Positions 7,991 through 30,286 of a stretch of DNA of 64,000 nucleotides are shown here, piece after piece. The stretch's first letter is position 1. Every line of letters begins with the position of its first letter. Both the position numbers and the translations under genes were made by a program. The DNA is taken from positions 1 through 64,000 of IMG/VR virus record IMGVR_UViG_3300027896_000001. One strand, given 5' to 3'. The notes under the pieces are model-generated. The model worked only from the letters and a program-made list of their open reading frames with translations. It had not been told where the DNA came from and did not search any database. This stretch comes from a virus.

Positions 7991-7998
7991 GAGGGATT

Positions 7999-8946: not shown

Positions 8947-8974
8947 ACAGAACACATTCAAGCAATATATAATT

Positions 8975-9013: not shown

Positions 9014-9060
9014 ATATTATACATTATAGCACCTCTTTTTTTTACCTCTGAAGGATCATC

Positions 9061-12453: not shown

Positions 12454-12463
12454 GGAGTTAATT

Positions 12464-13531: not shown

Positions 13532-16255
13532 ATGCCAAGAGGATATAATCTGTCCTTTAAAATGCACATGGAAGGAATTGAGGTTCCTTTCAAGAGTGCG
13601 AATATTATCTGTACGCCGAACGGAGTGGAAGCCAACATTAACATCTATCACAACAAATATGTTTACGACATAAAACCTAAAACGATGGTGCAGATATTTT
13701 TTAAGGACTGGGCGCCGAACGGAGGAAAACCTGGATGGAGACTGATGTTCGATGGGTTCTTCTCAAGTTACTACAAGGAGGACGAATCCACTCAGGGAAG
13801 AATGATAGGAATCGTCTGCAGAGATTTCAGGATGGACCTTCGTAAAGCTCCGGCAGCGCTTGCATATACCGGGGACTCCGAACGTACATCACGGCATTTA
13901 TTCAACATGCATGGCCTTTATACACGCACGGTTGTTCCTGGAATGAGCACTCCGAAGCATCCTAAGAGCGTGGCGACGAGGGAATACGAAAATCAATTAA
14001 GCCCTTTGTCAAGCGAACTCAGGTACATTGCAGGAACAGCTTACGGGGCAGGGGCAAAACAAGACCCGAAGACAGGGGAATGGTTTTATTCAAAAAAGTA
14101 CGCTGACACTCCAGTTGATAAATGGGGAAAAGCGGATTGTAGATTTTTCCTCGACGCCCTTATTCGTGGGATATGGACTGAGGCTGTCGGCGGCACATCT
14201 GTCGGAGCGTTTCTTAACAAGAGAACGAAATGCGATAAAAGGTTCCTAATCCCTTCAAATAAAGCAGGTTACAACTTCTGGTCAAGACAGTCGGCCGGCC
14301 TTCAGATGGGTTCATATGTCATGATGGATTCGAGATTTGTGAGCCTCGAAGTTGCTATTATGAGAATAGCCGCCTTGTTTTCGGTACGGGTTTATTCATG
14401 CAACACGCCGGCATTGATACCGATAAGTGAAACAGTCAATGGACAACCCAATCCTACAATCGATTACATAATGGATCAGAAGGTAAGAAAATTTCTTGTT
14501 GACAGGGCGAGTGCTGAGTTCGGCGCTCCATACATACTCAACGAAGGCATGCTTCTTCCTCCACTTGAATTCACGGCTCCACCAAACTGCAACCTGTTCC
14601 TTCCTCCCATATGCAACCGCGTTTCCTGGCAATATGATATGGACGCCGATATCACTCGCGGGTATTATTCAGTCGTCAATAGTCTTTCAGGATATGATTC
14701 GACGCAGGGACTCAACATGCTTGGTATCCAGGTTCCGAATCTTTTGTTCGACCTGAATGACCAGGAGGGAAGCAAGAAAGACAAGTATGGAAGACGGAAA
14801 CCACCGATAACACTTGAAGAGAGATACAAAGGGGTTTCACTGACATATGGTCAAGTGAACCTTGATCTTGCAATGAATGAGGCGAACACGGAACAACTCG
14901 ATTCTATTCTAAGAAAAAAACAAGCAAAGATACGGGAGACCAAGACAGAAGAAATTACAAGAGGGGGTTCTGTTACTTCTCCTGCGGTGTTAAACCACCT
15001 TGCCCCAGAATTAAGGGAACAGGCTGAAAAAAATATAAATGACAAATTGGAAAAAATGAAGATAAGCACGCAGGTTCCCGTACAGACCGCTACCACAAAT
15101 GCAATGCGGCGCCATGCTATTCTTAAATACTTAAATGAGAAATATGCTGGCAGGGTCATAACGATCGACATGATGTTCAACCCATATCCCATGTGCGGAT
15201 TTCCCGGAATGTTTGTTGACGATGACGAGGCTGGTGGAGAACAGTCTTCCAAATCGGTACTTGGAATGGTCCAGCAAGTCAAACACATCATTCATATTTC
15301 TTCCGAAGGGGCTGAGGCAAGCACCACGGTAATCATGAACGACGCAAGGTTTATCGATGAGCCGACCGATTTAAGCCCTGATGGAAATGCGTATTATTTA
15401 AAACCGACAGATCCGATTGCCGCTGAGATAGATCCCAAAACTCTTAAATTCGTAAGCGAAATGAAAGCCAACCCGGTGCATCATTATGTCCCGGAACCGA
15501 AACAGGCAACAGAAAGAGTGGTCAACCCGAGGGCTTACGACCTTAATCAAAACAAGGAAATAAAAGACTATATATACGTGAAGGACTTTCTTTCGATAAC
15601 GCAGAGGTGGTCTGAAGGAGGAAAGTCGAATAAACTGTATGTTGATTCGGATTATGAGCCTCAGCGCATATGTAAATTCTACAAGGATGTTCTTCAGCAT
15701 TCAAAACCGCACTTCATGATAGGGACAAGATTTGTAGAAAACAGGAACGTTTTCTTCGTATATGACTCGATGCATGAGGCCCTTGTTGAACTTAAAAACA
15801 CGAAGAAGGAACTGCTTACCGAATACGACAGGGCTATGGAATTCATTTCAAGAGGAATATGTTCCGCCGATGCTTTTTATCAGGGGATACTCGGGGCGTC
15901 GGTACAGGGGGAAATACTTGAACCTGATCCTGCGCATCCTGGAAATTATATATCCAAAGGTTTCGGTTACATATGCAATACAAATAATTTCGACGACACT
16001 AGGATTGAGGACGAATATTTTGGAGTGACAACGGCATTGTGGAACAGCGGAAAAATAGAAGAACTTAAGGCCGCGCCTCAAGCCGCGCTGGCTAAGGGCT
16101 GGACACAATCAAAAGGGTTAATGACGCATGAAGGGCAATGCAGCAGCATCCTTGAGACAATGCCTATTACTGCTTTCATAGAGGAGCGAAAACAGTCTGT
16201 CAAAAAGTATATTACAAGTACAAGCCAGACTGCTCAAGGGATGCGGTTCAAATGA
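13532..16255 (+). CDS. Putative baseplate hub protein
   Basis: 907 aa; N-terminal beta pattern (VQIFF...LMFDG...IVCRD) and ITIDMMFNP...VLGMVQQVKHII resemble hub folds; synteny. Confidence 0.5.
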   Translation: MPRGYNLSFKMHMEGIEVPFKSANIICTPNGVEANINIYHNKYVYDIKPKTMVQIFFKDWAPNGGKPGWRLMFDGFFSSYYKEDESTQGRMIGIVCRDFRMDLRKAPAALAYTGDSERTSRHLFNMHGLYTRTVVPGMSTPKHPKSVATREYENQLSPLSSELRYIAGTAYGAGAKQDPKTGEWFYSKKYADTPVDKWGKADCRFFLDALIRGIWTEAVGGTSVGAFLNKRTKCDKRFLIPSNKAGYNFWSRQSAGLQMGSYVMMDSRFVSLEVAIMRIAALFSVRVYSCNTPALIPISETVNGQPNPTIDYIMDQKVRKFLVDRASAEFGAPYILNEGMLLPPLEFTAPPNCNLFLPPICNRVSWQYDMDADITRGYYSVVNSLSGYDSTQGLNMLGIQVPNLLFDLNDQEGSKKDKYGRRKPPITLEERYKGVSLTYGQVNLDLAMNEANTEQLDSILRKKQAKIRETKTEEITRGGSVTSPAVLNHLAPELREQAEKNINDKLEKMKISTQVPVQTATTNAMRRHAILKYLNEKYAGRVITIDMMFNPYPMCGFPGMFVDDDEAGGEQSSKSVLGMVQQVKHIIHISSEGAEASTTVIMNDARFIDEPTDLSPDGNAYYLKPTDPIAAEIDPKTLKFVSEMKANPVHHYVPEPKQATERVVNPRAYDLNQNKEIKDYIYVKDFLSITQRWSEGGKSNKLYVDSDYEPQRICKFYKDVLQHSKPHFMIGTRFVENRNVFFVYDSMHEALVELKNTKKELLTEYDRAMEFISRGICSADAFYQGILGASVQGEILEPDPAHPGNYISKGFGYICNTNNFDDTRIEDEYFGVTTALWNSGKIEELKAAPQAALAKGWTQSKGLMTHEGQCSSILETMPITAFIEERKQSVKKYITSTSQTAQGMRFK

Positions 16256-16977
16256 ATATACTTGAACAAATTAAAGAATCTGCATTGATTGATGAGCTTG
16301 AAAAAATAGCCCTCAATGCGCTTGAAAAAAGGGAATTGGCTAAAAAGTTCGGACTTATTTTCGAGGGGACGGGAAGAAACTGGGCGTTGAGAAATTTACG
16401 GAAAGGGAAAAACTGGGAACAACTTGGATCGGTGAGCCAAAAACATCTTAATGCCGCAATGCCTTTAATAAAAGAAACAACTCCCAAAGGAGTTGAAATT
16501 GGATTTTCTACATATGGAACTAGAAGGTCTCCGATATTACGCGGAGGAATCGGAATGACTCCGATAGGTACTATTTCAAATAAAATTACGAGGACATTTC
16601 ACACTCATCCGTATATTGGACTCGCAAAAACATCGCCTGATAAACTTTTGAAAGATATATTTCTTTCAACATTAAAGATCACCGGAAAAGGGAATATGGG
16701 TAAAAAAGAAATTAGAGAAGCGACTAAAGCATATGTAAAATCTTCAGTTTTTAAAAAGATGGTTAAACACATGAATAAAGATTCGAAAAGAATGCTGGAA
16801 ATGAGACCTCATTTGATGGCGCATCCTAATCCTGAAAATATCAAAGGCCTTACTGATTTAGCATCAATGCAATTAACTCCTCAAGCATATCATAATATAT
16901 TAAATTCAGATGCTATGATCCTTGGTATTCATAAAATAAGACCTAAAGGATTGCGAGAAGTTTACAGACAATTATAA
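16252..16977 (+). CDS. Tagged basic protein with a possible JAB/MPN-like HTHP motif
   Basis: N-terminal ILEQIKESALIDELEKIA; GVEIGF...TFHTHP. Confidence 0.7.
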   Translation: MNILEQIKESALIDELEKIALNALEKRELAKKFGLIFEGTGRNWALRNLRKGKNWEQLGSVSQKHLNAAMPLIKETTPKGVEIGFSTYGTRRSPILRGGIGMTPIGTISNKITRTFHTHPYIGLAKTSPDKLLKDIFLSTLKITGKGNMGKKEIREATKAYVKSSVFKKMVKHMNKDSKRMLEMRPHLMAHPNPENIKGLTDLASMQLTPQAYHNILNSDAMILGIHKIRPKGLREVYRQL

Positions 16978-16987
16978 GGAGAACACA

Positions 16988-17353
16988 ATGAAAAACTTTA
17001 TCATATTAACAGTATTGGTTATGGCTATCAGTTTTTTATCTTATTCCGATATAGATTCCACAAAAGCGGCCAATCTTGTAAAAGTCACCGAACGCACCAG
17101 CAATACTTCGTTTGGAACACGTTGGGCGTTTTCTCCAGTGGCGGATTATCCTGTAGAGATGATGAAGAAAGTAAAGACTCCGGACCTTTCAAAAGGGAAA
17201 GTGTACTGTTGCAAGGAAGGCGTAGGCGGGGTGATCTGGGTCTATGAGGATACGGCGTGTATTCTGATAAAAACATGGAATTCGAAATCCGACACGACGT
17301 ATAAGTTTTTGTGGTTTATGTATAATAAAAATAAATTTACATATTTAAAGTGA
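16988..17353 (+). CDS. Secreted/membrane-anchored hypothetical protein
   Basis: AGGAG RBS; signal-peptide-like N-terminus MKNFIILTVLVMAISFLSYS. Confidence 0.7.
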   Translation: MKNFIILTVLVMAISFLSYSDIDSTKAANLVKVTERTSNTSFGTRWAFSPVADYPVEMMKKVKTPDLSKGKVYCCKEGVGGVIWVYEDTACILIKTWNSKSDTTYKFLWFMYNKNKFTYLK

Positions 17354-17360
17354 GGGGATT

Positions 17361-17669
17361 ATGGGTTTTTTTAATCAAATAAAAGAAGCCGCCTTTATCG
17401 ATGAAATTGAAAAAATCTCTATGTCATTAAATAAGATCACTTCCGCACTCGCCGTAAGAAGGGTCGGAAAGGTCAGGGGATGGAGTCCGCAACGTTCAAG
17501 AAGGTTTGTCGAAACCCATCCATTATCTCCTGGACAGGAACGTGTTTCGTCGTCAATTCAGGTTGGGCCAGGGTCTCCATGGAGATCGCAAATGAAACGT
17601 GAAGTTGCCGGAGAACAAGGAAGAAAGGGCCTTTCCGGAAAAACTTATTTAAGATCTTTTGAAGAATAA
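17361..17669 (+). CDS. Tagged Arg-rich protein (putative internal virion protein)
   Basis: FFNQIKEAAFIDEIEKIS followed by a basic tail. Confidence 0.75.
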   Translation: MGFFNQIKEAAFIDEIEKISMSLNKITSALAVRRVGKVRGWSPQRSRRFVETHPLSPGQERVSSSIQVGPGSPWRSQMKREVAGEQGRKGLSGKTYLRSFEE

Positions 17670-17679
17670 CGGAGGGAAT

Positions 17680-18087
17680 ATGAATATTTTTGAAGAAATC
17701 AAACAGGCGGCATTTGTAGACGAATTGGAAAAAATAGCCTCAATCACATCGAATGTTAATGCGTATATTTTAAAAGCAAAAGGCGGATTGAAGCCTTTAA
17801 AAACATTCAAGAACAGAACAATGAGGGGAAAACAACTTCCTGATCCAGGACAGGTTAAATATTCAGGTGCGGTTGAAGACATGCAACTCCGAATGTATTT
17901 GGCAAAAAAATCAGAAGAAAAAGCCGCCGCGGCCGCTGCAACCGCCGCCGCTGCAAAACCCGTTACGCAAAGTATACAATCCGTAGCAAAACCGGTCGTA
18001 AAGCGCCCAAGCATATTATCAGGAATTGCGGCTAGAGTAAGAGGGGTTGGAAAAGCACTCAGGCCATTGCGGGCAATAAGGGTTTAA
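17680..18087 (+). CDS. Tagged basic Ala-rich protein
   Basis: GGAGG RBS before ATG 17680; IFEEIKQAAFVDELEKIA. Confidence 0.75.
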   Translation: MNIFEEIKQAAFVDELEKIASITSNVNAYILKAKGGLKPLKTFKNRTMRGKQLPDPGQVKYSGAVEDMQLRMYLAKKSEEKAAAAAATAAAAKPVTQSIQSVAKPVVKRPSILSGIAARVRGVGKALRPLRAIRV

Positions 18088-18110
18088 ACATTGTACTCTA
18101 TTTCGAGCAA

Positions 18111-18623
18111 ATGCTCTCAGAGGTTATTTTCTTAAAAATGAATACATTAAAAAAACTATCATCTTTAATCGATAATCTTTCCGTCATCCAGAAATTTGCC
18201 GACGACCTTGGCGGGGGCGTTCATAAGGAGAAGGAGTTCCGTTTCCATCTTTCAGAACTCCCCCCTGAATGTGACATCGTTAAGCCTATTATCATCAAGC
18301 AGGGGATTTTGAAAGAGATAAAAGATGGCGATAACGTCGTCGCATATTGTAGAATTAGAATGAAGCAGGAACCTGGTAAAGTGCCGAAGTACAGTTTGGG
18401 AGTGAAGAACTTTCAAAAGAACGAGGAGTCTGAAACTGAAATCTCTAAGGATACTTTTGACGCTTTTTATCCGGACAATCTGGAAAAACCGCAGGAGAAA
18501 AAGCGTTACGAAATCAACAACTGGGAGATTGATGAGATTGATGACGGCACAATCATCGCTGAACAGGAATATAAAAACAAACAGAATTTAAACGATATAC
18601 CAGGACACTGGAAAGTTATATAA
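18111..18623 (+). CDS. CYTH / triphosphate tunnel metalloenzyme domain protein
   Basis: EKEFRF (ExE), IKQG, YCRIR, EESETEIS, EKKRYEI, WEIDE and IAEQE match the CYTH motif order; preceded by QKFA; start may be 18138. Confidence 0.7.
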   Translation: MLSEVIFLKMNTLKKLSSLIDNLSVIQKFADDLGGGVHKEKEFRFHLSELPPECDIVKPIIIKQGILKEIKDGDNVVAYCRIRMKQEPGKVPKYSLGVKNFQKNEESETEISKDTFDAFYPDNLEKPQEKKRYEINNWEIDEIDDGTIIAEQEYKNKQNLNDIPGHWKVI

Positions 18624-18637
18624 ATAAAGGAGATTGT

Positions 18638-19063
18638 ATGGAATCAATTCTTGAAAAATTAGCAAAGAAAACTCATCCCGTTTCTGAAGCGCAGAGGCGT
18701 TGGGCTTTTGCGGCTGAAGAACGTGGCCAGCTTCCAAAAGGGAAGGCGCATACATGGTCAAAAAGAGTGGAGGGTGAAAGCCTCCCTGAAAAAACTGCAA
18801 GCCTTTTTGATCAAATTAAAGAAGCGGCGTTTGTTGATGAACTGCAAAAAATTGCTATGCGAATGACGGGCGCAAGAGCCGCTGAGAATGAATTATTCCA
18901 TCGTGTTTCTGCGGCTGGAACTCGTGCTGGAAGAGAAGCGTCGCATATATCGTCTAATGAAAGATGGATTGCCCATAGAACAAGACAGGCTGAAGAAGCT
19001 GAAAGGACCAGAATGCCAGGATGGGCCGGACAAACAAGCAGTTATGATCGGTATGGACAATAA
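18638..19063 (+). CDS. Tagged protein with a SEAQRRW domain
   Basis: EKLA, EKTA, then an internal LFDQIKEAAFVDELQKIA. Confidence 0.75.
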   Translation: MESILEKLAKKTHPVSEAQRRWAFAAEERGQLPKGKAHTWSKRVEGESLPEKTASLFDQIKEAAFVDELQKIAMRMTGARAAENELFHRVSAAGTRAGREASHISSNERWIAHRTRQAEEAERTRMPGWAGQTSSYDRYGQ

Positions 19064-19105
19064 ATAAAAAAACTTGAATTATAAATTTAAATATTGGAGG
19101 GTCGT

Positions 19106-19459
19106 ATGAATATGTTTGATCAAATCAAAGAAGAGGCGATGATTGATGAGTTGCAGAAAATTGCAGACGGAGACGAGTTGGCTGCCGATGTGGGCCGTGG
19201 AACAATGTTGGGTGGTGGATTGGGAGTTGCCGGCGGAGCCGCCCTTGGAGGAATCGCAGTGCATAATGTAAATAAAAGTCTTGCTGAAAGTTCAAAACTG
19301 CTCAGACAAATGGGTCTTGGGCGCATGCCGAAAATAAAAGGAAGTGTCGGCAAAGGGGCTCTTGTCGCAGGTTTGATTGGTGGATTGGTAGGATCCGGAT
19401 TAGGCGCAGGGGCAGGCGCGGGGATAGGCGGATTGCGTCAATTGAGCAAGGAGAAATAA
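19106..19459 (+). CDS. Tagged glycine-zipper membrane protein
   Basis: GGAGG RBS; tag plus two GxxxG-rich hydrophobic segments. Confidence 0.75.
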   Translation: MNMFDQIKEEAMIDELQKIADGDELAADVGRGTMLGGGLGVAGGAALGGIAVHNVNKSLAESSKLLRQMGLGRMPKIKGSVGKGALVAGLIGGLVGSGLGAGAGAGIGGLRQLSKEK

Positions 19460-20227
19460 ATGGAAACAATTTTTGATCAAATAAAAGAAGCGGCTATTGT
19501 TGACGAACTTCAAAAAATAGCCGATGGGGATCTCGGCGAAATGACCGGAGCAGGCGCCGGAATAGGTTCTCTTGCCGGGGCGATCGGGGGAGGAATATAC
19601 GGACGCCATAGGGTGGTCAAGGAAATGAAAGGGTTAAAAAATCTTCTCAGGTCAGCCAGGAAAGGCCTTGGGCCGATGAAAGGAAGACTTCCAACGATAC
19701 GTGGAAAAGGTCCTCTTGGAGAAGGCATGCTTATTGGATCACTGGTCGGCGCGAGCCTTGGCGCGGGCATCGGTGCGGGTGGAGGAGCCACCGTAGGAAC
19801 GCTCAGGCAGGCCCTGACAAAAACTGGAGGAGACATCTCCGAAGGTTCCGGAACGGGCGTTATGCTGGGCGCAGGACTTGGAGGAGTGGGCGGAGCGGCT
19901 TATGGCGTGCATGCGGTACATTCAAATGTTAAAGGGTTAAAAGGTGCCGCCAGCACTCTTAACAAACAACTGAATGCTTTGAAAAGAGTTAAGGGAATGG
20001 GAATACCAAGAAAATTAAAAATCCCGACCATCAGAGGGAGGGGCCCATTGGTAGGAGGAGCTATCGCCGGCGCAGCGCTCGGAACAGCCCTTGGAGCTGG
20101 ATTGGGAGCGGGTATAGGGGCTGGCGCAGGAGCCGCCAGACGGTTTTATCAACCAGAATATATGTATGAGAAATATGAAAGCAAGGACGCTATAGCCGAT
20201 GACAATCGGTTTGAAAAGGTTTATTAA
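19460..20227 (+). CDS. Tagged double glycine-zipper protein (tandem duplicate of the previous unit)
   Basis: Tag plus two units, each with PTIRG(K/R)GPL and G-zippers, separated by KTG. Confidence 0.8.
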   Translation: METIFDQIKEAAIVDELQKIADGDLGEMTGAGAGIGSLAGAIGGGIYGRHRVVKEMKGLKNLLRSARKGLGPMKGRLPTIRGKGPLGEGMLIGSLVGASLGAGIGAGGGATVGTLRQALTKTGGDISEGSGTGVMLGAGLGGVGGAAYGVHAVHSNVKGLKGAASTLNKQLNALKRVKGMGIPRKLKIPTIRGRGPLVGGAIAGAALGTALGAGLGAGIGAGAGAARRFYQPEYMYEKYESKDAIADDNRFEKVY

Positions 20228-20694
20228 TGAATTTTTTTGAGACAGTAAAACAAGGATCATTCATCGACGAGCTTCAGAAGATCGCCTTCAAGGAATCTTT
20301 TGGGCCTAACGGCGAACTGATCACCGATTACATTAAAGGTGATTATGCGGTCAGCAGAGCAAGACAAAAAGAACCTATACCATTCAATGCCGCAAGAGTA
20401 GTTGGAACAGTCGGTGGTGGTTTAGGCGGAGCTGTTATAGGTGGCCTGGCAAACCTTCCAATGCTTGCAATCGGAAGGAAGAAGAAATGGAGTGATAAAC
20501 AAGTATGGGCGGCCATGAAGAGCGCCCAGAGAATAGGAAGCATTGCAGGCGGCGCGCTCGGTCTTGCAACCGCTTTGGAATTTGTCGAATCGCCTTTACT
20601 GAAATCTCGAGGGATTAAAAGAAAAGGTCTCATACATCCGACTTATAAAATCAGCAGGGAAGCGCAGCAGAAATATAGAATTCATCCTGACTAA
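20227..20694 (+). CDS. Tagged glycine-zipper protein
   Basis: FFETVKQGSFIDELQKIA; GTVGGGLGGAVIGG and GSIAGGALG. Confidence 0.75.
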   Translation: MNFFETVKQGSFIDELQKIAFKESFGPNGELITDYIKGDYAVSRARQKEPIPFNAARVVGTVGGGLGGAVIGGLANLPMLAIGRKKKWSDKQVWAAMKSAQRIGSIAGGALGLATALEFVESPLLKSRGIKRKGLIHPTYKISREAQQKYRIHPD

Positions 20695-20702
20695 GCGGTG
20701 CT

Positions 20703-21392
20703 ATGAATGATACCGAACAAATTCTCAAGTGGCAGAAAACGAAAGACCCGAATCTTTTCGCTAATATGGTCATTCGTTATCAACCAGTTATTAATTCAGT
20801 GGTCAATAAATTCCGGACAGTCGGGCTTCCGCCGGCAACACTGCGCGCCCATGCTACCACGCAACTGATAAAATCCTTCGAGTCGTTTGACCCTTCACGG
20901 GGAACGCAACCCACGACGCACATATGGAATAATCTCCAGAAGGTCCAACGCGTCGCCTCGGAAAGCCTAATGTCCGGACACATTCCTGAGAACAGAAATC
21001 TTAAGAGATCTACATACAATATTGTTCAGGATAATTTGACCGAACAACTTGGAAGAGAACCTAACGTTGAGGAAATGAGTGACGAACTTGGTTGGGATAA
21101 AAGAGAAACAGCCAGGATGCAGTCGGAGATGAAGGGCGAAACAACTGCGAGTAATGCCGAATTCGATTTTTACGGGAATAGTACAACATCCAGGTCGAAG
21201 GACAGACAACTTGTAGATTATCTGTATCATGAACTTTCCGGCCCCCAGAAAGTGATATTCGAACACACATTCGGCTACGGCGGAAAGGACATACTTAACA
21301 ATAAAGAAATAGCTAAGAAACTCAACATGAACGAGATGATGGTGCATCGAATGAAAAAGGACATGTCGAGAAGGGTTCAGGAGATGAGATGA
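20703..21392 (+). CDS. Sigma70-family RNA polymerase sigma factor (SigF/FliA-like size)
   Basis: Region 2 LIKSFESFDPSRG, region 3 LGREPNVEEMSDELG, region 4 LSGPQKVIF...NKEIAKKLNM. Confidence 0.85.
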   Translation: MNDTEQILKWQKTKDPNLFANMVIRYQPVINSVVNKFRTVGLPPATLRAHATTQLIKSFESFDPSRGTQPTTHIWNNLQKVQRVASESLMSGHIPENRNLKRSTYNIVQDNLTEQLGREPNVEEMSDELGWDKRETARMQSEMKGETTASNAEFDFYGNSTTSRSKDRQLVDYLYHELSGPQKVIFEHTFGYGGKDILNNKEIAKKLNMNEMMVHRMKKDMSRRVQEMR

Positions 21393-22096
21393 AGAAAAAA
21401 GAATTCGCACCAGGTCTTCCCTCTAAAGAGAAGACGCATAAAATAAGTCAGAAGGGCCAAACTCGTTTGGTCATTCAGGAACATAATGCGTCTCATCATC
21501 ATTATGACATGCGCCTGCAGTCGGGAGATAAAGCGCATAGTTGGGTCATTAGAAGTCTCCCAGGAGAGAAACCTAAAACACTTGCAATAAGGCAACCGAC
21601 TCATACTGCGAAATATATGAACTTCGAGGGAACGATTAAATCTGGATATGGCGCGGGAACAGTCAAGAAGGTTTATGACGAGAAAGTTCATGTCCTTTCT
21701 GCGACGAATGATAAGATAAAAATGCAGACGCCGCAGGGGAATTTTACGATGGTAAAAATTAAAGATCCAAAAGATAGGAATTGGCTTATGATAAAAACAT
21801 CAGTATTGGAGAAAGGTATGTTCGACCAAATTAAAGAAGCGGCGCTCATCGATGAATTAGAAAAAATTTCTGCAGGTCAATATACGAAAGTTTTTCAACA
21901 ATTAAAAGGAACTCCTAAATTTGATATATCAGAGTTATATCCAGCTGTGACGAAAATAAGGCAAAGAATTGGAAAGTTAAGATCATTTCTTCCTTCCGAG
22001 CATATAGGAAGAAAAGCAAAGTTATCTAATTTAGAACGTGATTTGACTACATCTTTACAAGAATATAAAAGTAAAAGACAAAACTTAATGTATTGA
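21389..22096 (+). CDS. LigD-type DNA 3'-phosphoesterase (PE) domain fused to a tag and basic tail
   Basis: LVIQEHNASHHHYDMRL...SWVI...LAI...H...YMNFEGTIKSGYGAGTV is the LigD PE signature; tag at 21818. Confidence 0.88.
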   Translation: MKKKEFAPGLPSKEKTHKISQKGQTRLVIQEHNASHHHYDMRLQSGDKAHSWVIRSLPGEKPKTLAIRQPTHTAKYMNFEGTIKSGYGAGTVKKVYDEKVHVLSATNDKIKMQTPQGNFTMVKIKDPKDRNWLMIKTSVLEKGMFDQIKEAALIDELEKISAGQYTKVFQQLKGTPKFDISELYPAVTKIRQRIGKLRSFLPSEHIGRKAKLSNLERDLTTSLQEYKSKRQNLMY

Positions 22097-22107
22097 TAAA
22101 ATTTAAC

Positions 22108-22535
22108 TATGCTTAAGAATCCTATAACAATGAAATTGGAGAAAGATATGTTCAATCAAATTAAAGAAGCGGCATTTATTAATGAGTTAGAAAAGATATC
22201 AGTTAGAGGTGATTATAATAAAATGTTAAATTTAAAAGGCCGCCTTGCAAAAAGGCTGTATAAAATTTATCATTCACCCGAAAAATTTAATCCTAATACT
22301 GCGAATGTTGTTTCTGAACATTATGGTAAAAAATAGCTCCTTTAGAAAAAAAGTTATTTAATAGAATGGATATATTAAGAAATCGTTTATTTCAAAGGGG
22401 AATAACAGATGTTGGTATGAAAACAAATGATTGGAATAAATTAGAAAGACTTGGCCAAATGCGACAGAACATTGATTTAAGTGTATGGCATTAAAATTGA
22501 TTGATTTAAAAATATGCTTAAGAATCCTATAACAA
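22108..22535 (+). repeat. 23-bp direct repeat TATGCTTAAGAATCCTATAACAA
   Basis: Exact copies at 22108-22130 and 22513-22535, each containing an ORF start (MLKNPIT). Confidence 0.9.
22109..22494 (+). pseudogene. Tagged ORF frameshifted in an A6 run
   Basis: Frame stops at 22336 (GGT AAA AAA TAG); the -1 frame continues IAPLEKKLFNRM...SVWH to TAA at 22494. Confidence 0.5.
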
Positions 22536-23668
22536 CAAAACCTGATTACAAAGAACTTGAAGAGCCTACTGCCTATACGGATGACAGTATCGTTCTTCAG
22601 CCAAAAGTGGATGGTTCTCATTCATTAATTGCATTGCATTCAAACCGCGATAACGATATCTATTCATATCGGATAAGTAAAAGGACTGGTAAATCGATTG
22701 ACCATTCAGCACAGATTCCAAAGATAAGAGATCTTGAAGTTCCGAAGTTTCTTGACAATACAGTTATTCGTGGCGACCTGTTCGGCAAAACGAAACATGG
22801 CGTGATGCCTGCGGAACAGATAGGCGGAATACTGAATGCCAGCCTTGAAAAGAGTTTTGCGAAACAACGGGAATCTGGATGGTTAAGGCCCTATGTATAC
22901 AATATAGAAAAGTTTCACGGAAAAGATGTTTCCAACGAACCTTATGCTGTCAAATTCCAATTGCTGAAAAAAATAGAATCGGCATTGCCGCAATTGGAAG
23001 TGGCTGAAACCGCATTTACTCCTGAAGAGAAAAAGAAACTTGTTGAAAAAGTCAAGAAAGGTAAACATCCTGACACTGTCGAGGGAGTGGTGGAATGGAA
23101 CCTGAACAAACCTGGCGGCGATCCAGCAAAGGTAAAATTCAGAGATAATTTCGAAGTGTACATCCGGAACATATTTCCTGCGGTAAATCAGAAGACGGGA
23201 AGGGAAAAGAAAGAAGCCGGCGGTTTCGAATACAGCCTTACCCCGAAAGGGGAGATCGTAGGAAACGTCGGAACAGGTTTTGATCGTTCTGAAAGAATCG
23301 ATATGCTGAAGCATCCCGAGAAATGGGTGGGAGAGGTGGCGAGGGTGAAATCACAGCAGCAATACGGATCGGGGGCATTGAGGGCCCCATCGTTCTATAC
23401 ACTCCATGTGGAGAAGAACCTGCAGAAAGCGGCATATGATGATTTTTTCAGATATGGATTCGTAGATGAATTGGAAAAAATAGCGGCAACTCTGAAAGAA
23501 TTGAACAAGGCCAGCGTCAAGGTTTATGATAAAAGAGTGGGGCCTCCTCCCGTCCAGCGTCATCATGAAGAGGTCGGTCCGACTCAGATTAAACACAGGG
23601 AAGATGCCGGAGAACAGGGCGGTTCAATATCCACCGGAGGCGGGTCTATAGAAATTTCAGGTATATAA
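22514..23668 (+). CDS. ATP-dependent DNA ligase with C-terminal tag
   Basis: Motif I QPKVDG, III VIRGDL, IV EGVV, V AKVK; OB fold VGNVGTGF...LRAPSF; then GFVDELEKIA. Confidence 0.88.
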   Translation: MLKNPITTKPDYKELEEPTAYTDDSIVLQPKVDGSHSLIALHSNRDNDIYSYRISKRTGKSIDHSAQIPKIRDLEVPKFLDNTVIRGDLFGKTKHGVMPAEQIGGILNASLEKSFAKQRESGWLRPYVYNIEKFHGKDVSNEPYAVKFQLLKKIESALPQLEVAETAFTPEEKKKLVEKVKKGKHPDTVEGVVEWNLNKPGGDPAKVKFRDNFEVYIRNIFPAVNQKTGREKKEAGGFEYSLTPKGEIVGNVGTGFDRSERIDMLKHPEKWVGEVARVKSQQQYGSGALRAPSFYTLHVEKNLQKAAYDDFFRYGFVDELEKIAATLKELNKASVKVYDKRVGPPPVQRHHEEVGPTQIKHREDAGEQGGSISTGGGSIEISGI

Positions 23669-23676
23669 GGACGCAT

Positions 23677-25746
23677 ATGCCACCGACAAAAGAAGCATGC
23701 CAGATCTATGTCGACGCACAAACGGCGAAAGCCAAGATATTAAAACAGTGGTTTAATATCCGTGACGCCATTCAAAAACTTCTGTCTACTAAAATCAAAC
23801 TGCAATTCGGAATTCTTAACATAGCCGACGTGATAGGCGCCGAAGTCCTCTCTGCTGTCGAGACTCTTGCGGCATCCATAGCGCAGGCGGCGCTTGGGGC
23901 GTTATCCCAGGCGGCCACGGCTGTCGTTGAAACTGTGCTGAAGGAATTGCTGAAGATACTGCTCGCGTTCCCAACTGCTGTATTTTCTCTCGTGGCTATT
24001 CCATTAAATCAAGCAAGAGTATCCTGCAACAATGAAAGATTATATCTGATAAAGGCGAGCAACAACATAAGGGCTGTTCTCGGGCTTATCATAAAATGGA
24101 CCGGCGGCCAGGCAGGAGACCAATATTATCAGAAGATGGTAGAAGCGATGCCGTATATTACAAAAGCCCTTTCCTTGATTAAAGACATGATTGTCCAACT
24201 TCAGGGGGAAACATCTGATGAGGCGACACCAAGAAACGCCGTATTTAATGAAGAGAAATTTTTCGAACTGCAGCACAACCTGCGCGCCGCTATAAACATA
24301 ACCATGCCGACATCGGTGATAGAAGATAATCTTCAGATTACCGCAACAGTCGAACAGAACAGGTTGGATATATATAAGGAACTGTCTGAAAATATAAAAA
24401 AGGAATATGCCAGGAAAAGGAGCGATATCTCCACTAAGTTTTCGAAGGACATGGACGGCGCGGAAGGGTTTAACGGGTTGGCAAGGGCCATCAGAAAAGA
24501 ACAGGTAAAAAGCGATTATTCTACGCAACTGAACATGTTGTCAATGTGGAAGAAAGAACAACTGGCAAACGCGCAAATGAAAGCGACAATCCAGTCGGCT
24601 TCCAATGGAAGCAATTACGTTCAGGCTCTTTCAGGATTCGCCGACGCGTTCATGTACGATATGAAATTTCTCATGAGCAATCTCAACGATTTTCATCAGA
24701 ACATGGTTATGGCGTACACTAATTATAAAATGAGTCAGTTGATGTGCAACAGCATTTACAACATAAGAGAGTTGATACGCGGACTGATTAATGAGATAAT
24801 TAACTTAATAAGGGAAAGTTCCAATGTAGCGGGAACCGCTGTTATACAGTCGCTTGCGGTGTCTCAGGCTATGATGGAAATCGTGTATGAAACATTTTCA
24901 AAGGATATAGAACGGTTTAATTCGTCTGATAGCAACATCTCGTCGATTGAATTGTCTCAGGCGCTTTTTCTGGACAATCAGTTATTGGCTGCCGCAGACG
25001 CGAACATTAACGCGACGATAACCGACAGCCTTATAAAACTGATAAACAGTGATGATCTTCTTAAAGATGAGGCTGGGCAATTTGATGCTTTTCTTAACAG
25101 AATTAAGAATATTCCTGACTGGGACGGTACTCTCGGAGTCTGGGCTGTTGATATGCTTCATATTTCTGTCTCTCCTTACGTGCAGGTAATAGCAGACTCC
25201 GTCAATCTTCTTACAAGCGTTCCGACTTTATCAATATCAAAAAGGGGATCAGACCAGCAGACGATAAGGAAACTTTTAGTAAGAGTTGAAAATTCGTTTG
25301 CCGCTATAAAGAAACATAATACACTGGTTTATAATGTCCTTTATTCTTATGAACCATATGTCGGGTCTGAGGCCGGCAACCTGATGAAGATGCTGGCTGG
25401 AACCGGGCTCCTGCAGAATTTCGCTCTCGGAATGAGCATCGCGGGGCTTGTGACAACGATAGGGGCGAATGTCGCGACACGAGGATTCGGATCGGTTTTT
25501 CCAAGCAATTCGGCGTGCAGAAAATTATATCCGGAATTATTCACTGACGCCGACTTGAATCTTGCCGCGGCAAAAGAGGCGCTGAATGTTCAATCGGCTG
25601 AATTAAGTAATGATTTTAATGCCTGGTTGGAGAAGAATAAATTCAATATAAACAAACAAAGACTGGATGTGTCAACATTTGAATTATATCCGTCTGATCT
25701 TCCTTGGGACGCATATAATAATGCCGATGCCGAGCCGGTAACTTAA
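23677..25746 (+). CDS. Large helical hypothetical (probable virion) protein
   Basis: 689-aa ORF within the baseplate cluster; no recognised motif. Confidence 0.75.
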   Translation: MPPTKEACQIYVDAQTAKAKILKQWFNIRDAIQKLLSTKIKLQFGILNIADVIGAEVLSAVETLAASIAQAALGALSQAATAVVETVLKELLKILLAFPTAVFSLVAIPLNQARVSCNNERLYLIKASNNIRAVLGLIIKWTGGQAGDQYYQKMVEAMPYITKALSLIKDMIVQLQGETSDEATPRNAVFNEEKFFELQHNLRAAINITMPTSVIEDNLQITATVEQNRLDIYKELSENIKKEYARKRSDISTKFSKDMDGAEGFNGLARAIRKEQVKSDYSTQLNMLSMWKKEQLANAQMKATIQSASNGSNYVQALSGFADAFMYDMKFLMSNLNDFHQNMVMAYTNYKMSQLMCNSIYNIRELIRGLINEIINLIRESSNVAGTAVIQSLAVSQAMMEIVYETFSKDIERFNSSDSNISSIELSQALFLDNQLLAAADANINATITDSLIKLINSDDLLKDEAGQFDAFLNRIKNIPDWDGTLGVWAVDMLHISVSPYVQVIADSVNLLTSVPTLSISKRGSDQQTIRKLLVRVENSFAAIKKHNTLVYNVLYSYEPYVGSEAGNLMKMLAGTGLLQNFALGMSIAGLVTTIGANVATRGFGSVFPSNSACRKLYPELFTDADLNLAAAKEALNVQSAELSNDFNAWLEKNKFNINKQRLDVSTFELYPSDLPWDAYNNADAEPVT

Positions 25747-25793
25747 TGTGGCTAAAATGGTCAGAAATAAGTATTTTCTTTAAAGGCGCATAA

Positions 25794-26234
25794 ATGGACA
25801 TTGATTTCATAACAGATTTAAGAGAAGGATTCGCAATATCTCTCGGAGACAATCCTCAGGCTGTTTCAGGAAACAGGGCTCTTGTCAATAGATTCGAGCT
25901 TACGTTCCTTACGAAACGAAGACAATTCATACTTGGGAACAAGTATGTTGCCGATACTTATGGCGGGGATGCCAGTAAATTCATAAACAGGCCCCAGGTA
26001 TTGAATGACATGCAAAGCATCTCTGCGTCTATAACAACCGCTATAGACCAGACCGTACAATCAATATTAGACGATCAGCCGGCCGAAATACCGGAGACCG
26101 AAAAACTGGAATCGGCTGAATTGATAAGTCTCGACATTACTGACGATGTAGTAGTGGCAGTGATTCAAGTGAATCCGGTTGAAGTGGAATCATATGATGA
26201 TTTAAGATTTAATCTTCCGATTACAAGGAGTTAG
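25794..26234 (+). CDS. Putative baseplate wedge protein (T4 gp25-like)
   Basis: 146 aa; VSGNRALVNRFELTFLTKR...YGG pattern; upstream of the baseplate-J-like gene. Confidence 0.55.
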   Translation: MDIDFITDLREGFAISLGDNPQAVSGNRALVNRFELTFLTKRRQFILGNKYVADTYGGDASKFINRPQVLNDMQSISASITTAIDQTVQSILDDQPAEIPETEKLESAELISLDITDDVVVAVIQVNPVEVESYDDLRFNLPITRS

Positions 26235-26236
26235 TT

Positions 26237-26635
26237 ATGGAATTGTTTGAACAGATTAAAGAAGCGGCTTTTATTGATGAGTTGGAAAAGATTTCCACAC
26301 CAAGTTTAAAAAGAATTTCTAAAGCACTTAAAGTAAGGGGATTGTTAGGAAACGCTTCTATATACGAAGGAAAGGAAAATCAATATTTAAGAGAATTAAT
26401 TTCGGGAAAACATTCAACAAAAGAAATTAGAAATGCAGCTTTTTCTCCTGAATCAGTATTGGCTGATAAATTAATATCAAAAGGTATAGAGCCATCCAGA
26501 GGAATAAAAAAAACTCTTTTAAGAAGTTTTCCTATTAGAAGAATTACAGAGGCGTCGCCAGAAACTAGAAAATTAGTAAGTCAACTTGATTGGGAACCTG
26601 CAAATATATGGCACAAAGGACAAAGAATATATTAA
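26237..26635 (+). CDS. Tagged basic protein
   Basis: LFEQIKEAAFIDELEKIS; AT-rich cargo. Confidence 0.75.
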   Translation: MELFEQIKEAAFIDELEKISTPSLKRISKALKVRGLLGNASIYEGKENQYLRELISGKHSTKEIRNAAFSPESVLADKLISKGIEPSRGIKKTLLRSFPIRRITEASPETRKLVSQLDWEPANIWHKGQRIY

Positions 26636-26643
26636 GGAGAAAT

Positions 26644-26877
26644 ATGCTAAACACATTCGAACAAATCAAAGAAGCAGCTTTTATTGATGAATTGGAAAAA
26701 ATTGCGGCCAAAGTGCGATTCCCTATGCCTAAAAGAGGAAAACTTCCAAGAGTAGCCACACCTTCAATGAGAAGGGGCGCTCCGATTACTCGTGGAGAAG
26801 CGTGGCAGCCGCCGGCGCGCGCACAATCGTACGCAACACCAAAAGGTAATCCGATGTCATATGGCGAAGCATGGTAA
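26644..26877 (+). CDS. Tagged small Arg/Pro-rich protein
   Basis: AAGGAG RBS before ATG 26644; TFEQIKEAAFIDELEKIA. Confidence 0.75.
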   Translation: MLNTFEQIKEAAFIDELEKIAAKVRFPMPKRGKLPRVATPSMRRGAPITRGEAWQPPARAQSYATPKGNPMSYGEAW

Positions 26878-26891
26878 AGGAAGAATAATCT

Positions 26892-29846
26892 ATGTTTAAT
26901 TTTACAGCATTCATCAGGCGCAGGTGGTCCGAATATTCCAATTCGTCCGGCCAGAAAGGCACGGTTATTGATGAACTTGCTGTAAAACCCACCGGGCTCG
27001 TGCTCGCCGATTTTTATAACACGCTTGTAAGTGAGAAGAGAGTTAATGACGCTTCACAGTGGAAGAATATGAGCGAACCGGAACTTGATATTTTCGGAAA
27101 CAAATTCTTCACTCCGCGCATCTACGGTGATTATGCTTTTGGATACGCAAGAATCTGGTTTGACGAAAAGAAAAATATAGAGATAACTGTTGATGCAAGA
27201 TTCGTTTCCGATGGCGGGCTTCAGTATCGTCCAGTTCAGGCGGGATACGTGAACAGCGGGTCTTTCGTGCGGTCAACGGACCGGTTTGGCTTGTATTACA
27301 TAGACGTCCAAATCATCGCTGTCACGAAAGGTAATGAATACAATATAGACAAGGGAGTGATATCCCAACTCACCGGAATTGATTTTACCTACAAGACAAT
27401 CACCAATCCTGAACCAATCGCAAACGGTTCAAAATTCGAGAATAATGAAACCTATTTCAAACGTCTGAATTACGCGGTAAACGACAGAAGTATGATGAAT
27501 AAACGAAGCATCTTTGCCAAACTGCCTGAATTTTTTCCTGTAGTCCGGTCGATGTATATCTCAAGTCCGGGCGACCGATACATGATGCGCGACCTGGTTG
27601 AGGCCGTTGACCTGTCTGTTCCCATAAAAAGATCGGATTATCTTGGGAAGACACAAGGCGAAAACATGGTTAAGAGCATCGCCTTCAAGCAGATTTTTCC
27701 TTATGAGGCGGGAAACCAAAATGGTTCGAAATGGAATCCGTTTTCAATTCCAACCGATTATAATTATCCTCTGACGATAGAGCCCGTCGATATATTAAGT
27801 TCGGAACCAGCGAAACACGGATACGCACTTAATCAGGAGTTTGACGATGCCGACTATAAAGGTTTGTTTTTTGACGATTATAAGACTTTTATTGAAATTG
27901 CTACACATGATCTTTATAATATTTCTAATGACGCTCTGGGTTATTCTCCTGTTGCTATTCCTAGTATAAACTGGGTTTATGGAGCGCACGGAATGCAGAG
28001 CGGAAATTTCGGACAGCTTGCGGACGGAGTGACTGGGATAGACGTAATTAATTTCAAAACGAACATGCTGTCTCTTGCCGGCGGGGCTTCAAATCCCGTA
28101 TCGGTTGGACTCGATATAAAGAAAAGAATCGGGATCAAAGTGGCAGGATCATTCATATGGCCTGCGGTCTCCGGAGAAAATCCTGCAACAGCAAAAAGCA
28201 ATCTTCAAATAATGGTCGGTGGCATTAACGGGAACCAGATAGACGGATTTACGGGAATAGGCTTCGGTGTCCGTGTTACAAAAGAATTCGTACCTGGCAG
28301 TGCCGATCTTAACGCCATACTTTATTTTGCTCATTCCGAAAGATATCAGTCCGTTCAGGTTTACGGAGATGAAGGAGACATGTCTTCGGTGACTGATACC
28401 GGCGCCCTTGCTGAAACGCAATTCAGGATAGAACCCGGTGTGGAATACGAATTTGAATTTATTGTTTATGACGATTTAAGGTTGACTCTCTATCTTGACA
28501 AATTGACAAACAAGGTCATCAGCGATCCTGATGAAATAGAAAATCAGAAACACTGGATGCTTCCGTCAACAGCCCTGAACATCTTCGGCCAGCAGATATT
28601 CTCCAGTACGACCAATCGTTATGGCACGACAATGAAGGCGACACTTGAAACCTTATCATTAAGCAAGGACGATATATGGACAATCAACAATTTGCGCGCA
28701 TTCGACATTTCGGAAAAAAAGGCCACCGCGTTATTCGCACTTAACATTGAAAACCTGGAGGAACCGATATCGATATTTGCGCGTGCGTCCGGTTCCAGTT
28801 GCGTAGACGGGTTGCAGGGAGACGGATACATAGCGTATATCTGGGACAAAGAACAACCGAATATTGCTGGAGCATCTTCCGAACTCACTACGGGAGGATG
28901 GGTTGAATTGTTTGCGTTGTCGAATCCGGACGGTTCGAGGAATGCGCTTGAGGCTTTGTTTAAGGCCGACATAGATAATCTTGACAGGTATAAAATACAG
29001 AACAGGTTCGGAAAGAACATTTTCATCATGTTTGCCACCACAGGTAATTCAAAGATGAAAAGCCTGTATTCAAATCAGACCGAACAGGATATTCATTCAA
29101 TTTTACACGTTGATTACGTCAAGGCGGAAAGCGGCAATTTCTCATCTTATCATGCGAACAACAAGGCTGACCTATATCTTGCAACCATCAGTAATGCCGA
29201 AGAACTGGACGTTCAAACAATTACGCTTACAAAAGAATCGACCGAAAGCTTTTTCGAAATGAGCGAAGATAGCGGATGCATAATGCCGGTGGTCGATATT
29301 ATTTCAGTCATTATCGGGGAGGCCTCGGCAACGGCGCAGAACCTTGGGCAGAGCGACTATACCGCGGTCAGGGAAGACCCTCTTTATACTGGATCGGCAA
29401 AGGAAAAAATTCGAATCATACTTACAGGATATGACGCCTCCTCGATAACTGTTCAGTATACTTCGTTCCCTCAAATAAGGAGTATACAGAACTTCTTCGA
29501 CAGTTCCGATTATGGTAAAGTATTCGGAGACATTCTCGCCAGACACAAGTATCCGATCAACCTTACCTTCACCATCTATTTCACCGGATCGTCTACGGAG
29601 ACGCAGGTAATCAACACGATCAAACAATATTTCGATGAACATAACGATGGGGTGTTTGTAATCAAGGATCTGATCAGTTATCTTTACAACCAGCAGATTG
29701 TCAATAATGTCCAGGAACCGATAACAATCTCTTATTCAAGATACAACAACCAGAACCAAATAGAAAACGGAGATTTCACTGATCAGATAGAAGCGAGGGA
29801 TATCGATTTCTTCAGAGTTAAATCCATATCCGCCAGCAAACTTTAA
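26892..29846 (+). CDS. Baseplate J / gp6-like wedge protein
   Basis: ELDIFG...R..G.YA.G...F; VQIIAVTKGNEYNI..G.I...; ITNPEPIANGSKFENNETYFKR is a typical baseplate-J pattern. Confidence 0.75.
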   Translation: MFNFTAFIRRRWSEYSNSSGQKGTVIDELAVKPTGLVLADFYNTLVSEKRVNDASQWKNMSEPELDIFGNKFFTPRIYGDYAFGYARIWFDEKKNIEITVDARFVSDGGLQYRPVQAGYVNSGSFVRSTDRFGLYYIDVQIIAVTKGNEYNIDKGVISQLTGIDFTYKTITNPEPIANGSKFENNETYFKRLNYAVNDRSMMNKRSIFAKLPEFFPVVRSMYISSPGDRYMMRDLVEAVDLSVPIKRSDYLGKTQGENMVKSIAFKQIFPYEAGNQNGSKWNPFSIPTDYNYPLTIEPVDILSSEPAKHGYALNQEFDDADYKGLFFDDYKTFIEIATHDLYNISNDALGYSPVAIPSINWVYGAHGMQSGNFGQLADGVTGIDVINFKTNMLSLAGGASNPVSVGLDIKKRIGIKVAGSFIWPAVSGENPATAKSNLQIMVGGINGNQIDGFTGIGFGVRVTKEFVPGSADLNAILYFAHSERYQSVQVYGDEGDMSSVTDTGALAETQFRIEPGVEYEFEFIVYDDLRLTLYLDKLTNKVISDPDEIENQKHWMLPSTALNIFGQQIFSSTTNRYGTTMKATLETLSLSKDDIWTINNLRAFDISEKKATALFALNIENLEEPISIFARASGSSCVDGLQGDGYIAYIWDKEQPNIAGASSELTTGGWVELFALSNPDGSRNALEALFKADIDNLDRYKIQNRFGKNIFIMFATTGNSKMKSLYSNQTEQDIHSILHVDYVKAESGNFSSYHANNKADLYLATISNAEELDVQTITLTKESTESFFEMSEDSGCIMPVVDIISVIIGEASATAQNLGQSDYTAVREDPLYTGSAKEKIRIILTGYDASSITVQYTSFPQIRSIQNFFDSSDYGKVFGDILARHKYPINLTFTIYFTGSSTETQVINTIKQYFDEHNDGVFVIKDLISYLYNQQIVNNVQEPITISYSRYNNQNQIENGDFTDQIEARDIDFFRVKSISASKL

Positions 29847-29857
29847 AGGAGGAACAA

Positions 29858-30010
29858 ATGGGTTCTTTTTTTCAGAAACTCGGAACAGTTGTCGTTAACT
29901 CGGTGATCAAACAGGTTCCAAACCTGGTAGTAGGCATTTTCAAGGCTATTATGAAAAAGAAAACAGACCCAACTCAACCTACGGTCGTTGACAAGCAAAA
30001 ACCGAAATAA
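29858..30010 (+). CDS. 50-aa amphipathic basic peptide
   Basis: AAAGGAGG RBS; MGSFFQKLGTVVVNSVIKQVPNLVVGIFKAIMKKK...; below the track cutoff. Confidence 0.65.
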   Translation: MGSFFQKLGTVVVNSVIKQVPNLVVGIFKAIMKKKTDPTQPTVVDKQKPK

Positions 30011-30019
30011 GGAGACATC

Positions 30020-30286
30020 ATGGGCTTTTTAGACGAAATCAAACAGGCGGCGTTTGAAGACGAATTACTCAAAATCGCCGGAAAAGGGAAAATCATAAAA
30101 GATACGGCCATAGCCTTGCTTAAAAAAAGAAAGCCCATAAAGGCCCTTCATATGTTTGCCCAGCAACATCCTGCAGGATTAACCGCTGGAACCATTGTCG
30201 GAGGGTTCGGCGCTGATGTCGCCGGAGGATATCTTGGAAGCCATAGTGGGGTCAAACACGGCTTGAAGCAAAGCGCAGAAAAATAA
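30020..30286 (+). CDS. Tagged glycine-zipper protein
   Basis: FLDEIKQAAFEDELLKIA; GTIVGGFGADVAGGYLG. Confidence 0.75.
   Translation: MGFLDEIKQAAFEDELLKIAGKGKIIKDTAIALLKKRKPIKALHMFAQQHPAGLTAGTIVGGFGADVAGGYLGSHSGVKHGLKQSAEK

Follow-up and report, generated by a model that had tools for sequence, protein, structure and literature searches.

We analyzed the window comprising the first 64 kb (64,000 nucleotides) of the viral record IMGVR_UViG_3300027896_000001, a complete genome of 174,649 bp with direct terminal repeats. Listing of open reading frames (ORFs), together with a regular-expression scan of the whole genome in six frames, revealed 13 copies of a 17-residue peptide with the consensus F(D/E)QIKEAAF(I/V)DEL(E/Q)KI(A/S), hereafter the tag, all encoded on the + strand between positions 16,261 and 30,079. 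In 10 of the 13 proteins the tag is N-terminal, starting at ORF residues 4-23; in the other three it is internal (ORF 18638), follows a LigD phosphoesterase domain, or follows the OB domain of a DNA ligase. All 13 genes are within the late structural strand block. They are listed below, with the part of the protein beyond the tag called its cargo, along with two untagged genes of the same region.

16252..16977, + strand: tagged ORF of 241 amino acids (aa); tag 16261-16311, residues 4-20; basic cargo, family unassigned by Pfam or PDB sequence comparison
17361..17669, + strand: tagged ORF of 102 aa; tag 17370-17420; very basic cargo, isoelectric point (pI) 11.6
17680..18087, + strand: tagged ORF with probable ATG at 17680; tag 17689-17739; basic, Ala-rich cargo
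18638..19063, + strand: ORF of 141 aa with internal tag 18806-18856, residues 57-73
19106..19459, + strand: tagged glycine-zipper protein of one unit (ORF 19094); tag 19115-19165
19460..20227, + strand: tagged glycine-zipper protein of two homologous units; tag 19472-19522
20227..20694, + strand: tagged ORF of 155 aa; tag 20236-20286; basic, Gly-rich cargo
20703..21392, + strand: sigma-70-like factor, untagged, inside the tag block; homologue of phage Arash Gp10
21389..22096, + strand: LigD-type 3'-phosphoesterase (PF13298, 1.1e-14); tag 21821-21871, residues 145-161, then a 74-aa basic tail
22109..22336, + strand: tagged ORF of 75 aa; tag 22151-22201; its first 22-23 bp duplicate the ligase start
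22514..23668, + strand: ATP-dependent DNA ligase (nucleotidyltransferase plus OB fold); tag 23435-23485, residues 308-324, then a disordered tail
26237..26635, + strand: tagged ORF of 132 aa; tag 26246-26296; basic cargo
26644..26877, + strand: tagged ORF with probable ATG at 26644; tag 26656-26706; very basic cargo, pI 11.6
26892..29846, + strand: baseplate wedge (gp6-like) protein, untagged, given as context; phrog_6, 5.6e-14
30020..30286, + strand: tagged ORF of 88 aa; tag 30029-30079; Gly-rich, basic cargo

The original prediction, made from the letters of this DNA, had placed 13 copies of the tag at these positions, mostly at the N-terminus with internal or C-proximal copies in ORF 18638, the phosphoesterase, and the ligase, and had proposed a profile scan of the genome. 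Both the copies and their positions were confirmed by the ORF listing, the regular-expression scan, and a 17-position hidden Markov model (HMM), which scored the 13 tags at 30-40 bits compared to 9.9 bits for the next best sequence among 3770 six-frame ORFs of the whole genome. Alignment of the copies showed that the lysine at tag position 15 is invariant and that protein similarity stops at KIA or KIS, as had been claimed, a boundary that was also seen in 64 foreign proteins. Conservation at the level of the protein was likewise borne out, evident by a pairwise identity of the tag DNA of 91% at codon position 2 versus 46% at position 3, with flanks at ~30%, and by the use of different codons for 48% of identical tag residues. 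This pattern indicates that selection on the peptide, and not a recent duplication of DNA, maintains the repeat. At ~111.06 kb, outside the window, an 84-aa protein of the head module begins with a degenerate 14th copy, FFRNELEKIA, which is conserved in two relatives.

The tag had also been described as a single amphipathic helix, and this part of the description did not hold. The helical hydrophobic moment of the whole tag was 0.10 against a shuffled mean of 0.23, on which ground a simple amphipathic helix was rejected. Its two halves gave moments of 0.44 and 0.70 on different faces; a single amphipathic helix is therefore too simple a picture. A clamp-binding (PIP-like) motif was considered separately and was rejected because the Gln is unconserved in relatives and position 4 is not hydrophobic.

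Outside the tag, BLAST detected no similarity among the tagged proteins except for the glycine-zipper pair, ORFs 19094 and 19460, which are paralogues (alignment z 11-20); the idea of 13 unrelated cargos therefore stands for the rest and fails for this pair. The pI of the cargo after the tag is 10-11.6 in 12 of the 13 proteins. In ORF 19460, the first unit begins after LQKIA and the second after LTKTG (19814-19828), with a unit-to-unit alignment z of 20, and we consider LTKTG a candidate second cut site. Homologues of ORF 18638 in relatives retain the tag, and in one relative the gene is just upstream of the head protease. The sigma-70-like factor within the block is 28% identical to the Arash sigma factor (4e-20). 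PHROGs and Pfam gave no matches for most structural proteins, and INPHARED, searched with the region DNA and with the baseplate protein, returned nothing. As a separate observation, ORF 16252, the largest tagged protein of no assigned family, contains H-T-H-P...T-S-P-D (H-x-H...T-x-x-D), a string reminiscent of the metal-binding motif of JAMM/MPN+ proteins; sequence comparison with Pfam and PDB gave no match to back this resemblance.

The two enzymes of the block offer a view of how a tag may enter a gene. The assignment as a ligase draws on 84 homologues, of which many possess PF01068 and PF13298, and on an AlphaFold (AF2) model; a PDB sequence search with the ligase produced nothing useful. 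In this model, with a mean predicted local distance difference test (pLDDT) score of 88, the tag is in an exposed helix (residues 299-338) before the disordered tail. Phosphoesterase and ligase form a single fused gene in the relative L003 and in many database homologues, and the gene is split here (21389-23668) by tag-bearing inserts; the layout of a phosphoesterase domain followed by a tag recurs in L002 and P0092. Exact 22-23-bp copies of the ligase start at 22109 and 22514 bracket the 75-aa tagged ORF. Judged from the sequence, this duplicated start is in all probability the footprint of the insertion of a tag cassette into a formerly fused phosphoesterase-ligase gene, and it suggests that tag cassettes spread via recombination. 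The tag directly follows the OB domain in 11 of the 84 ligase homologues, in some at the extreme C-terminus. Mobile elements were noted near such genes in two relatives: in L003, two HNH endonuclease genes (12123-12725 and 14099-14524) flank the phosphoesterase-ligase gene, and in L001 an insertion with a TnpB/IS605-OrfB-like gene (7117-9989) is in the same block as tagged genes.

The terminal residues of the tag were also examined in the head module, which is situated at ~105-118 kb of the genome, outside the window. It encodes a large terminase (phrog_675, 1.4e-54) and protease, scaffold-like, decoration-like, and capsid proteins, with the gene order protease, acidic scaffold-like protein, capsid. 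The 342-aa capsid protein has a homologue in Salmonella phage Arash, where it is annotated as the major capsid protein and is abundant. The candidate head maturation protease is a 653-aa protein (genome 112216-114177) whose N-terminal part matches phrog_18299, annotated 'head maturation protease' (5e-8); Bacillus phage G gp19 is a sequence homologue, and H109 and S160 are invariant in the lineages aligned. The Pfam models of S77 and S78 proteases (PF03420 and PF04586) found no match in the genome. When a low-confidence structural model of the protease (mean pLDDT 45) was compared with 48,161 PDB chains, the best match was T4 gp21 (5jbl; Z 5.3, root mean square deviation 3.4, 102 residues aligned), and the proteases of the herpesviruses varicella-zoster virus (VZV) and human cytomegalovirus (HCMV) were also among the structural matches.

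The end of the tag, written as the pentapeptide h-[EDQ]-K-[IVL]-[AS], occurs eight times in the 13 head-module proteins versus 0.38 expected, a ~20-fold enrichment that was reached in none of 1000 shuffles. In the rest of the genome, tagged proteins excluded, seven occurrences were found against 4.1 expected; at the outset, the motif had been expected in the propeptides of capsid and scaffold and in late genes only, and this was upheld. The same was observed for each of the eight relatives whose head modules were examined, with 3-11 sites compared to ~0.4 expected, and for the distant, cultured relatives Arash and Vibrio phage D69, with 10 and 9 sites versus 0.5-0.7 expected when Thr or Ala was also allowed at the second-last position. 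In the capsid protein, the site is at residues 15-19, within F-N-E-A-F-L-E-K-I-A and followed by T-I-E-G, and an N-terminal F-x-E/Q-K-I/V/L-A/G/S is kept in eight of nine lineages, the ninth having a similar string a few residues further in. The scaffold-like protein contains four pentapeptide sites and tag-like strings such as VDALEKIAS, and further sites were found in small head-module proteins, including the 84-aa one, and in the portal candidate. In the protease itself, the catalytic domain is closely followed by the invariant residues K245 and A247 (strings ILGKAAS, VLEKIAS, AMAKLAS, and TMMKIAG), a second site, h-x-K-x-A, is conserved at residues 26-30, and both flank sites are in segments modelled as disordered. 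The cutting rule first put forward, after K-x-A/S/G, fits the invariant K-x-A behind the protease domain in all lineages as well as the K-T-G boundary of ORF 19460. A complex prediction for the protease domain (residues 31-240) and the tag gave a score of 0.02, which speaks neither for nor against binding.

Two further features of these head modules were recorded. Paralogous decoration-like proteins at genome 115736-116257 and 118754-119470 have long Ser/Ala/Pro tails, one C-terminal and the other N-terminal, and three tandem copies of the decoration-like protein are present in the relative G002. The protease genes of G008 (L061 4386-7235, - strand) and G004 (L062 6217-8859, + strand) contain an intein-like insert of ~300 aa directly after the conserved V-S-M-G, which holds the presumed catalytic serine.

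The tag is found well beyond this genome. The strict core A-F-[IV]-D-E-L-[EQ]-K-I-[AS], searched as a degenerate DNA pattern, matched 26 IMG/VR stretches, mostly contigs of 130-200 kb. In 596 Gb of prokaryotic genomes it matched nine stretches, mostly internal to unrelated proteins, with one N-terminal match in an Acidobacteriota contig, and the core decapeptide alone is therefore not diagnostic. The pattern F-x-D-E-h-x-K-I was present 1-9 times in each of the 10 large viral records tested, always on the same strand as the genes, compared to 0-1 for a reversed-pattern control. Nine of the 10 tag-bearing records encode homologues (25-78% identity) of the 342-aa capsid protein and a fused beta-beta' RNA polymerase, the 2110-aa product of genome 86824-93156 that is conserved in these nine relatives; the tenth record is incomplete. 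A link to a ubiquitin-like system was also considered and was rejected, as an E1 was found in only three of the 10 tag-bearing genomes.

When 1.84 billion representative proteins were searched exhaustively with a profile, 76 cluster representatives proved to contain the full tag (E <= 0.001), 12 of them from this phage itself. Their 106 tag copies comprise 59 N-terminal, 44 internal, and 3 C-terminal ones, with up to four tags per protein at a spacing of ~57 residues. A word-indexed protein search with the tag region, which covered longer proteins only, found no match, a limit of the tool since the profile search found 76; the multi-tag protein P0085 was not found in viral contigs. Cargo is exchanged freely from phage to phage, and in relatives it includes SNF2 helicases, one with the tag at its start and another with the tag between domains, a GNAT plus glyoxalase-fold protein, an NlpC/P60-C92-like amidase, and a 751-aa protein in which phosphoesterase, tag, ligase, tag, and histidine phosphatase follow one another. 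In such polyproteins, the tags sit exactly at the boundaries of the enzyme domains. As for gene order, the placement between baseplate genes noted originally holds in this genome and does not extend to relatives, whose tagged genes neighbor that of the RNA polymerase, of the portal candidate, or of the protease: they directly follow the RNA polymerase gene in G002, are immediately upstream of the protease gene in G002 and G006, and are between the scaffold and capsid genes in G007.

Two neighboring observations came from these searches. In G009 (L071 7252-7617), a tag directly follows a match to Pfam DUF5661 (1.9e-08); going by the sequence, this family may recur as tagged cargo, or it may extend into the tag. 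An identical 84-aa protein with AFMDELEKIS occurs in Gastranaerophilales and Bacilli contigs of metagenome-assembled genomes and in one viral contig (L032, L034, L036, L037, and L017); it looks like a separate small mobile-element protein outside the tag system.

In phage T4, an N-terminal leader is all that the internal proteins have in common; this leader binds the prohead core and is removed by gp21, the gp21 cut motif is also used in the capsid, scaffold, and protease, and T-even phages harbor many variable ip genes whose products are recognized through the shared leader (PMC5694885; PMC12373910). Since the pattern described above matches that of the T4 internal proteins, we read the tag as a targeting helix combined with a cut site for the phage's own protease. 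That the tag is a capsid-targeting and maturation-cleavage signal, with both targeting and cutting holding, is the explanation we favor, at slightly better than even chances as judged from the sequence. The front of the tag, F-D/E-Q-I-K-E-A-A-F-I/V-D-E, would dock a protein onto the interior of the assembling prohead, with scaffold, protease, or the inner surface of the capsid as conceivable partners, and the end, L-E/Q-K-I-A/S, would serve as a substrate site of the 653-aa head maturation protease. Cutting would take place after the small residue (Ala/Ser preceded by Lys-Ile/Val/Leu), with the same cut expected at the N-terminus of the capsid protein, in the scaffold and the portal candidate, and at the flanks of the protease itself. 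Once freed, the cargo would remain inside the head alongside the DNA and reach the host cell upon infection. In this scheme, what we infer is binding to the prohead, cutting, packaging, and injection, and the tag, its conservation, its spread in the clade, its placement at domain boundaries, and the enrichment of its pentapeptide are what we observed.

Under this dock-and-cut scheme, the proteins loaded would be basic peptides, glycine-zipper proteins, the 3'-phosphoesterase, and the DNA ligase, to which relatives would add helicases, a phosphatase, an acetyltransferase, and an amidase. The enzyme cargo suggests a packaged function in DNA end healing and sealing, plus effectors for anti-defence or entry. 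A bolder form of the proposal is possible and, in our view, doubtful: the tag would be a position-independent dock-and-cut module, enzyme polyproteins would be loaded, cut, and injected as a DNA end-healing and sealing kit together with anti-defence effectors, and cargo would be recruited by recombination at the tag DNA.

Similarities to the T4 capsid-targeting sequence (CTS) are several. As with the CTS of IPI-III and Alt, a short shared sequence is found on otherwise unrelated, mostly small basic proteins, the cargo after it is basic, and, at the level of sequence, its end is a motif that is also present in the capsid, scaffold, and protease. The two differ in sequence and in length, 17 aa here versus about 10 in T4. 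The cut inferred here would fall after Ala/Ser with Lys-Ile/Val/Leu before it, unlike that of T4, which follows Leu/Ile-x-Glu, and the protease lacks a match to Pfam S77, although its predicted fold weakly resembles that of gp21 (Z 5.3). In contrast to the strictly N-terminal CTS, the tag is also internal, C-terminal, and between enzyme domains. Unlike T4 cargos, those described here include a ligase, a phosphoesterase, a phosphatase, and helicases, and they are known from sequence, whereas the T4 system has been shown experimentally.

Other shell-forming systems resemble this one in part. The protease gp245 of the phiKZ-like phage SPN3US cuts at A-X-E and trims its own C-terminus, many head proteins are processed at one motif, and phiKZ-like giant phages package enzymes such as a virion RNA polymerase (PMC5694885). 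Compared to the tag, phiKZ-like propeptides are long (often >100 aa), do not share one conserved tag, and are cleaved after Glu. The herpesvirus assemblin cuts between Ala and Ser at its maturational and release sites; it would have in common with the candidate protease a small P1 residue (Ala), cutting of itself and of the scaffold, and perhaps a related fold class, as VZV and HCMV are among the structural matches, and it differs in belonging to a eukaryotic virus, in lacking a cargo-tag system, and in its P3/P2 preferences. Encapsulin cargo-loading peptides and the encapsulation peptides of bacterial microcompartments are short and position-flexible and address diverse enzymes into a protein shell, but they are uncoupled from a maturation protease, and their shells are not DNA-filled virions.

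Several observations weigh against combined targeting and cutting. Conservation of the capsid N-terminus continues past the pentapeptide, so the capsid copy may play a structural part instead of being cut, and the enrichment of the pentapeptide, as a property of sequence, is as compatible with a repeated binding motif as with a cleavage site. Where the tag is the extreme C-terminus of a ligase homologue, cutting would remove almost nothing; C-terminal tags mean that docking must be independent of an N-terminal position and that cutting is maybe not universal. The resemblance of the modelled protease to gp21 appears weak at Z 5.3 and a mean pLDDT of 45, and the tagged genes of this genome are in the tail/baseplate block and not in the head block. 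On the other side, and in favor of enzymes being loaded, mass spectrometry of Arash particle preparations detected RNA polymerase subunits, which are homologues of the fused enzyme encoded here, sigma (Gp10), a helicase, RNA ligases, and a phosphoesterase; its authors stated that abundant enzymes are possibly carry-over (PMC10585845). The cultured relatives Arash and D69 are without the full tag, so their proteomes are uninformative about it. As they do possess the short motif, the cut-type motif is older and more widespread than the 17-residue address.

Some of these points would be met by docking without any cutting, the alternative that survives best and that we nonetheless consider unlikely. 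In it, the tag tethers cargo to the interior of the capsid or scaffold, in the manner of encapsulin cargo-loading peptides, which bind the inner face of an HK97-fold shell protein uncleaved, or of the P22 scaffold C-terminus, and the pentapeptide is a binding motif common to the scaffold, the capsid N-terminal arm, and the cargo. Such a tether would agree with the occurrence of the tag at N-terminal, internal, and extreme C-terminal positions, with its helical state in the ligase model, with capsid conservation beyond the pentapeptide, and with the tag-like strings of the scaffold-like protein. It does not account for the invariant K-x-A at both disordered flanks of the protease in all lineages, which is typical of autoprocessing, nor for the exact placement of tags at enzyme-domain boundaries in polyproteins; that similarity always ends at a small residue and that a K-T-G marks the repeat-unit boundary of ORF 19460 also points to cutting.

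Less probable still is a role outside the virion, with the tag recruiting DNA enzymes and small proteins to a hub in the infected cell, such as the RNA polymerase, the replisome, or a membrane site. Several cargos are indeed DNA enzymes, and the tagged genes of G002 directly follow the RNA polymerase gene, but the end of the tag is common to capsid, scaffold, and protease without enrichment elsewhere in the genome, all 13 genes are in the late structural strand block, and glycine-zipper and tiny basic cargos are ill-suited to an enzyme hub. We regard as improbable, too, and somewhat more so, the loading of cargo into the tail lumen or baseplate in the manner of the N-terminal packaging signals of extracellular contractile injection systems. 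The tagged genes of relatives belong to the head module or neighbor the genes for the RNA polymerase and the portal candidate, and the terminal motif is common to head and not to tail proteins, which runs counter to what the local map would suggest, where tagged genes lie between hub-like and wedge genes in a region syntenic with the Arash structural genes gp4-gp15. Least probable of all, with very little chance of being correct, is a leader for a modifying or exporting enzyme (like those of ribosomally synthesized and post-translationally modified peptides or of double-glycine bacteriocins) or a ubiquitin-like conjugation site on the invariant lysine at position 15, since despite the Gly-rich peptides among the cargos, the existence of multi-tag precursors, and the E-L-x-x-I spacing of the tag, which resembles that of double-glycine leaders, the genome is without a C39 peptidase (no match to PF03412) or a radical-SAM enzyme, no Gly-Gly follows the tag, and the cargos include folded enzymes of 300-700 aa.

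The motif strings of the tag were not found in the literature searched. The principle itself is established in T4 and known from phiKZ-like phages; what is new is the sequence and length of the tag, its independence of position, its placement between the domains of enzymes, the Lys-x-Ala/Ser specificity proposed for cutting, cargo from DNA repair, and the breadth of the uncultured clade in which it is found. If capsid targeting and maturation cleavage by the tag are true, 17 residues would suffice to send arbitrary proteins, including multi-domain enzymes, into the heads of a large uncultured clade of phages and to release them there, and a packaged DNA end-repair kit would be an unusual cargo. 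The Lys-Ile/Val/Leu-Ala/Ser specificity would then be defined for a little-characterized branch of head maturation proteases, to which those of Arash, Vibrio phage D69, and Bacillus phage G belong, and the tag would be a candidate protein-packaging tag for phage engineering. For these phages as a group, the injected proteome would be readable from their genomes alone.

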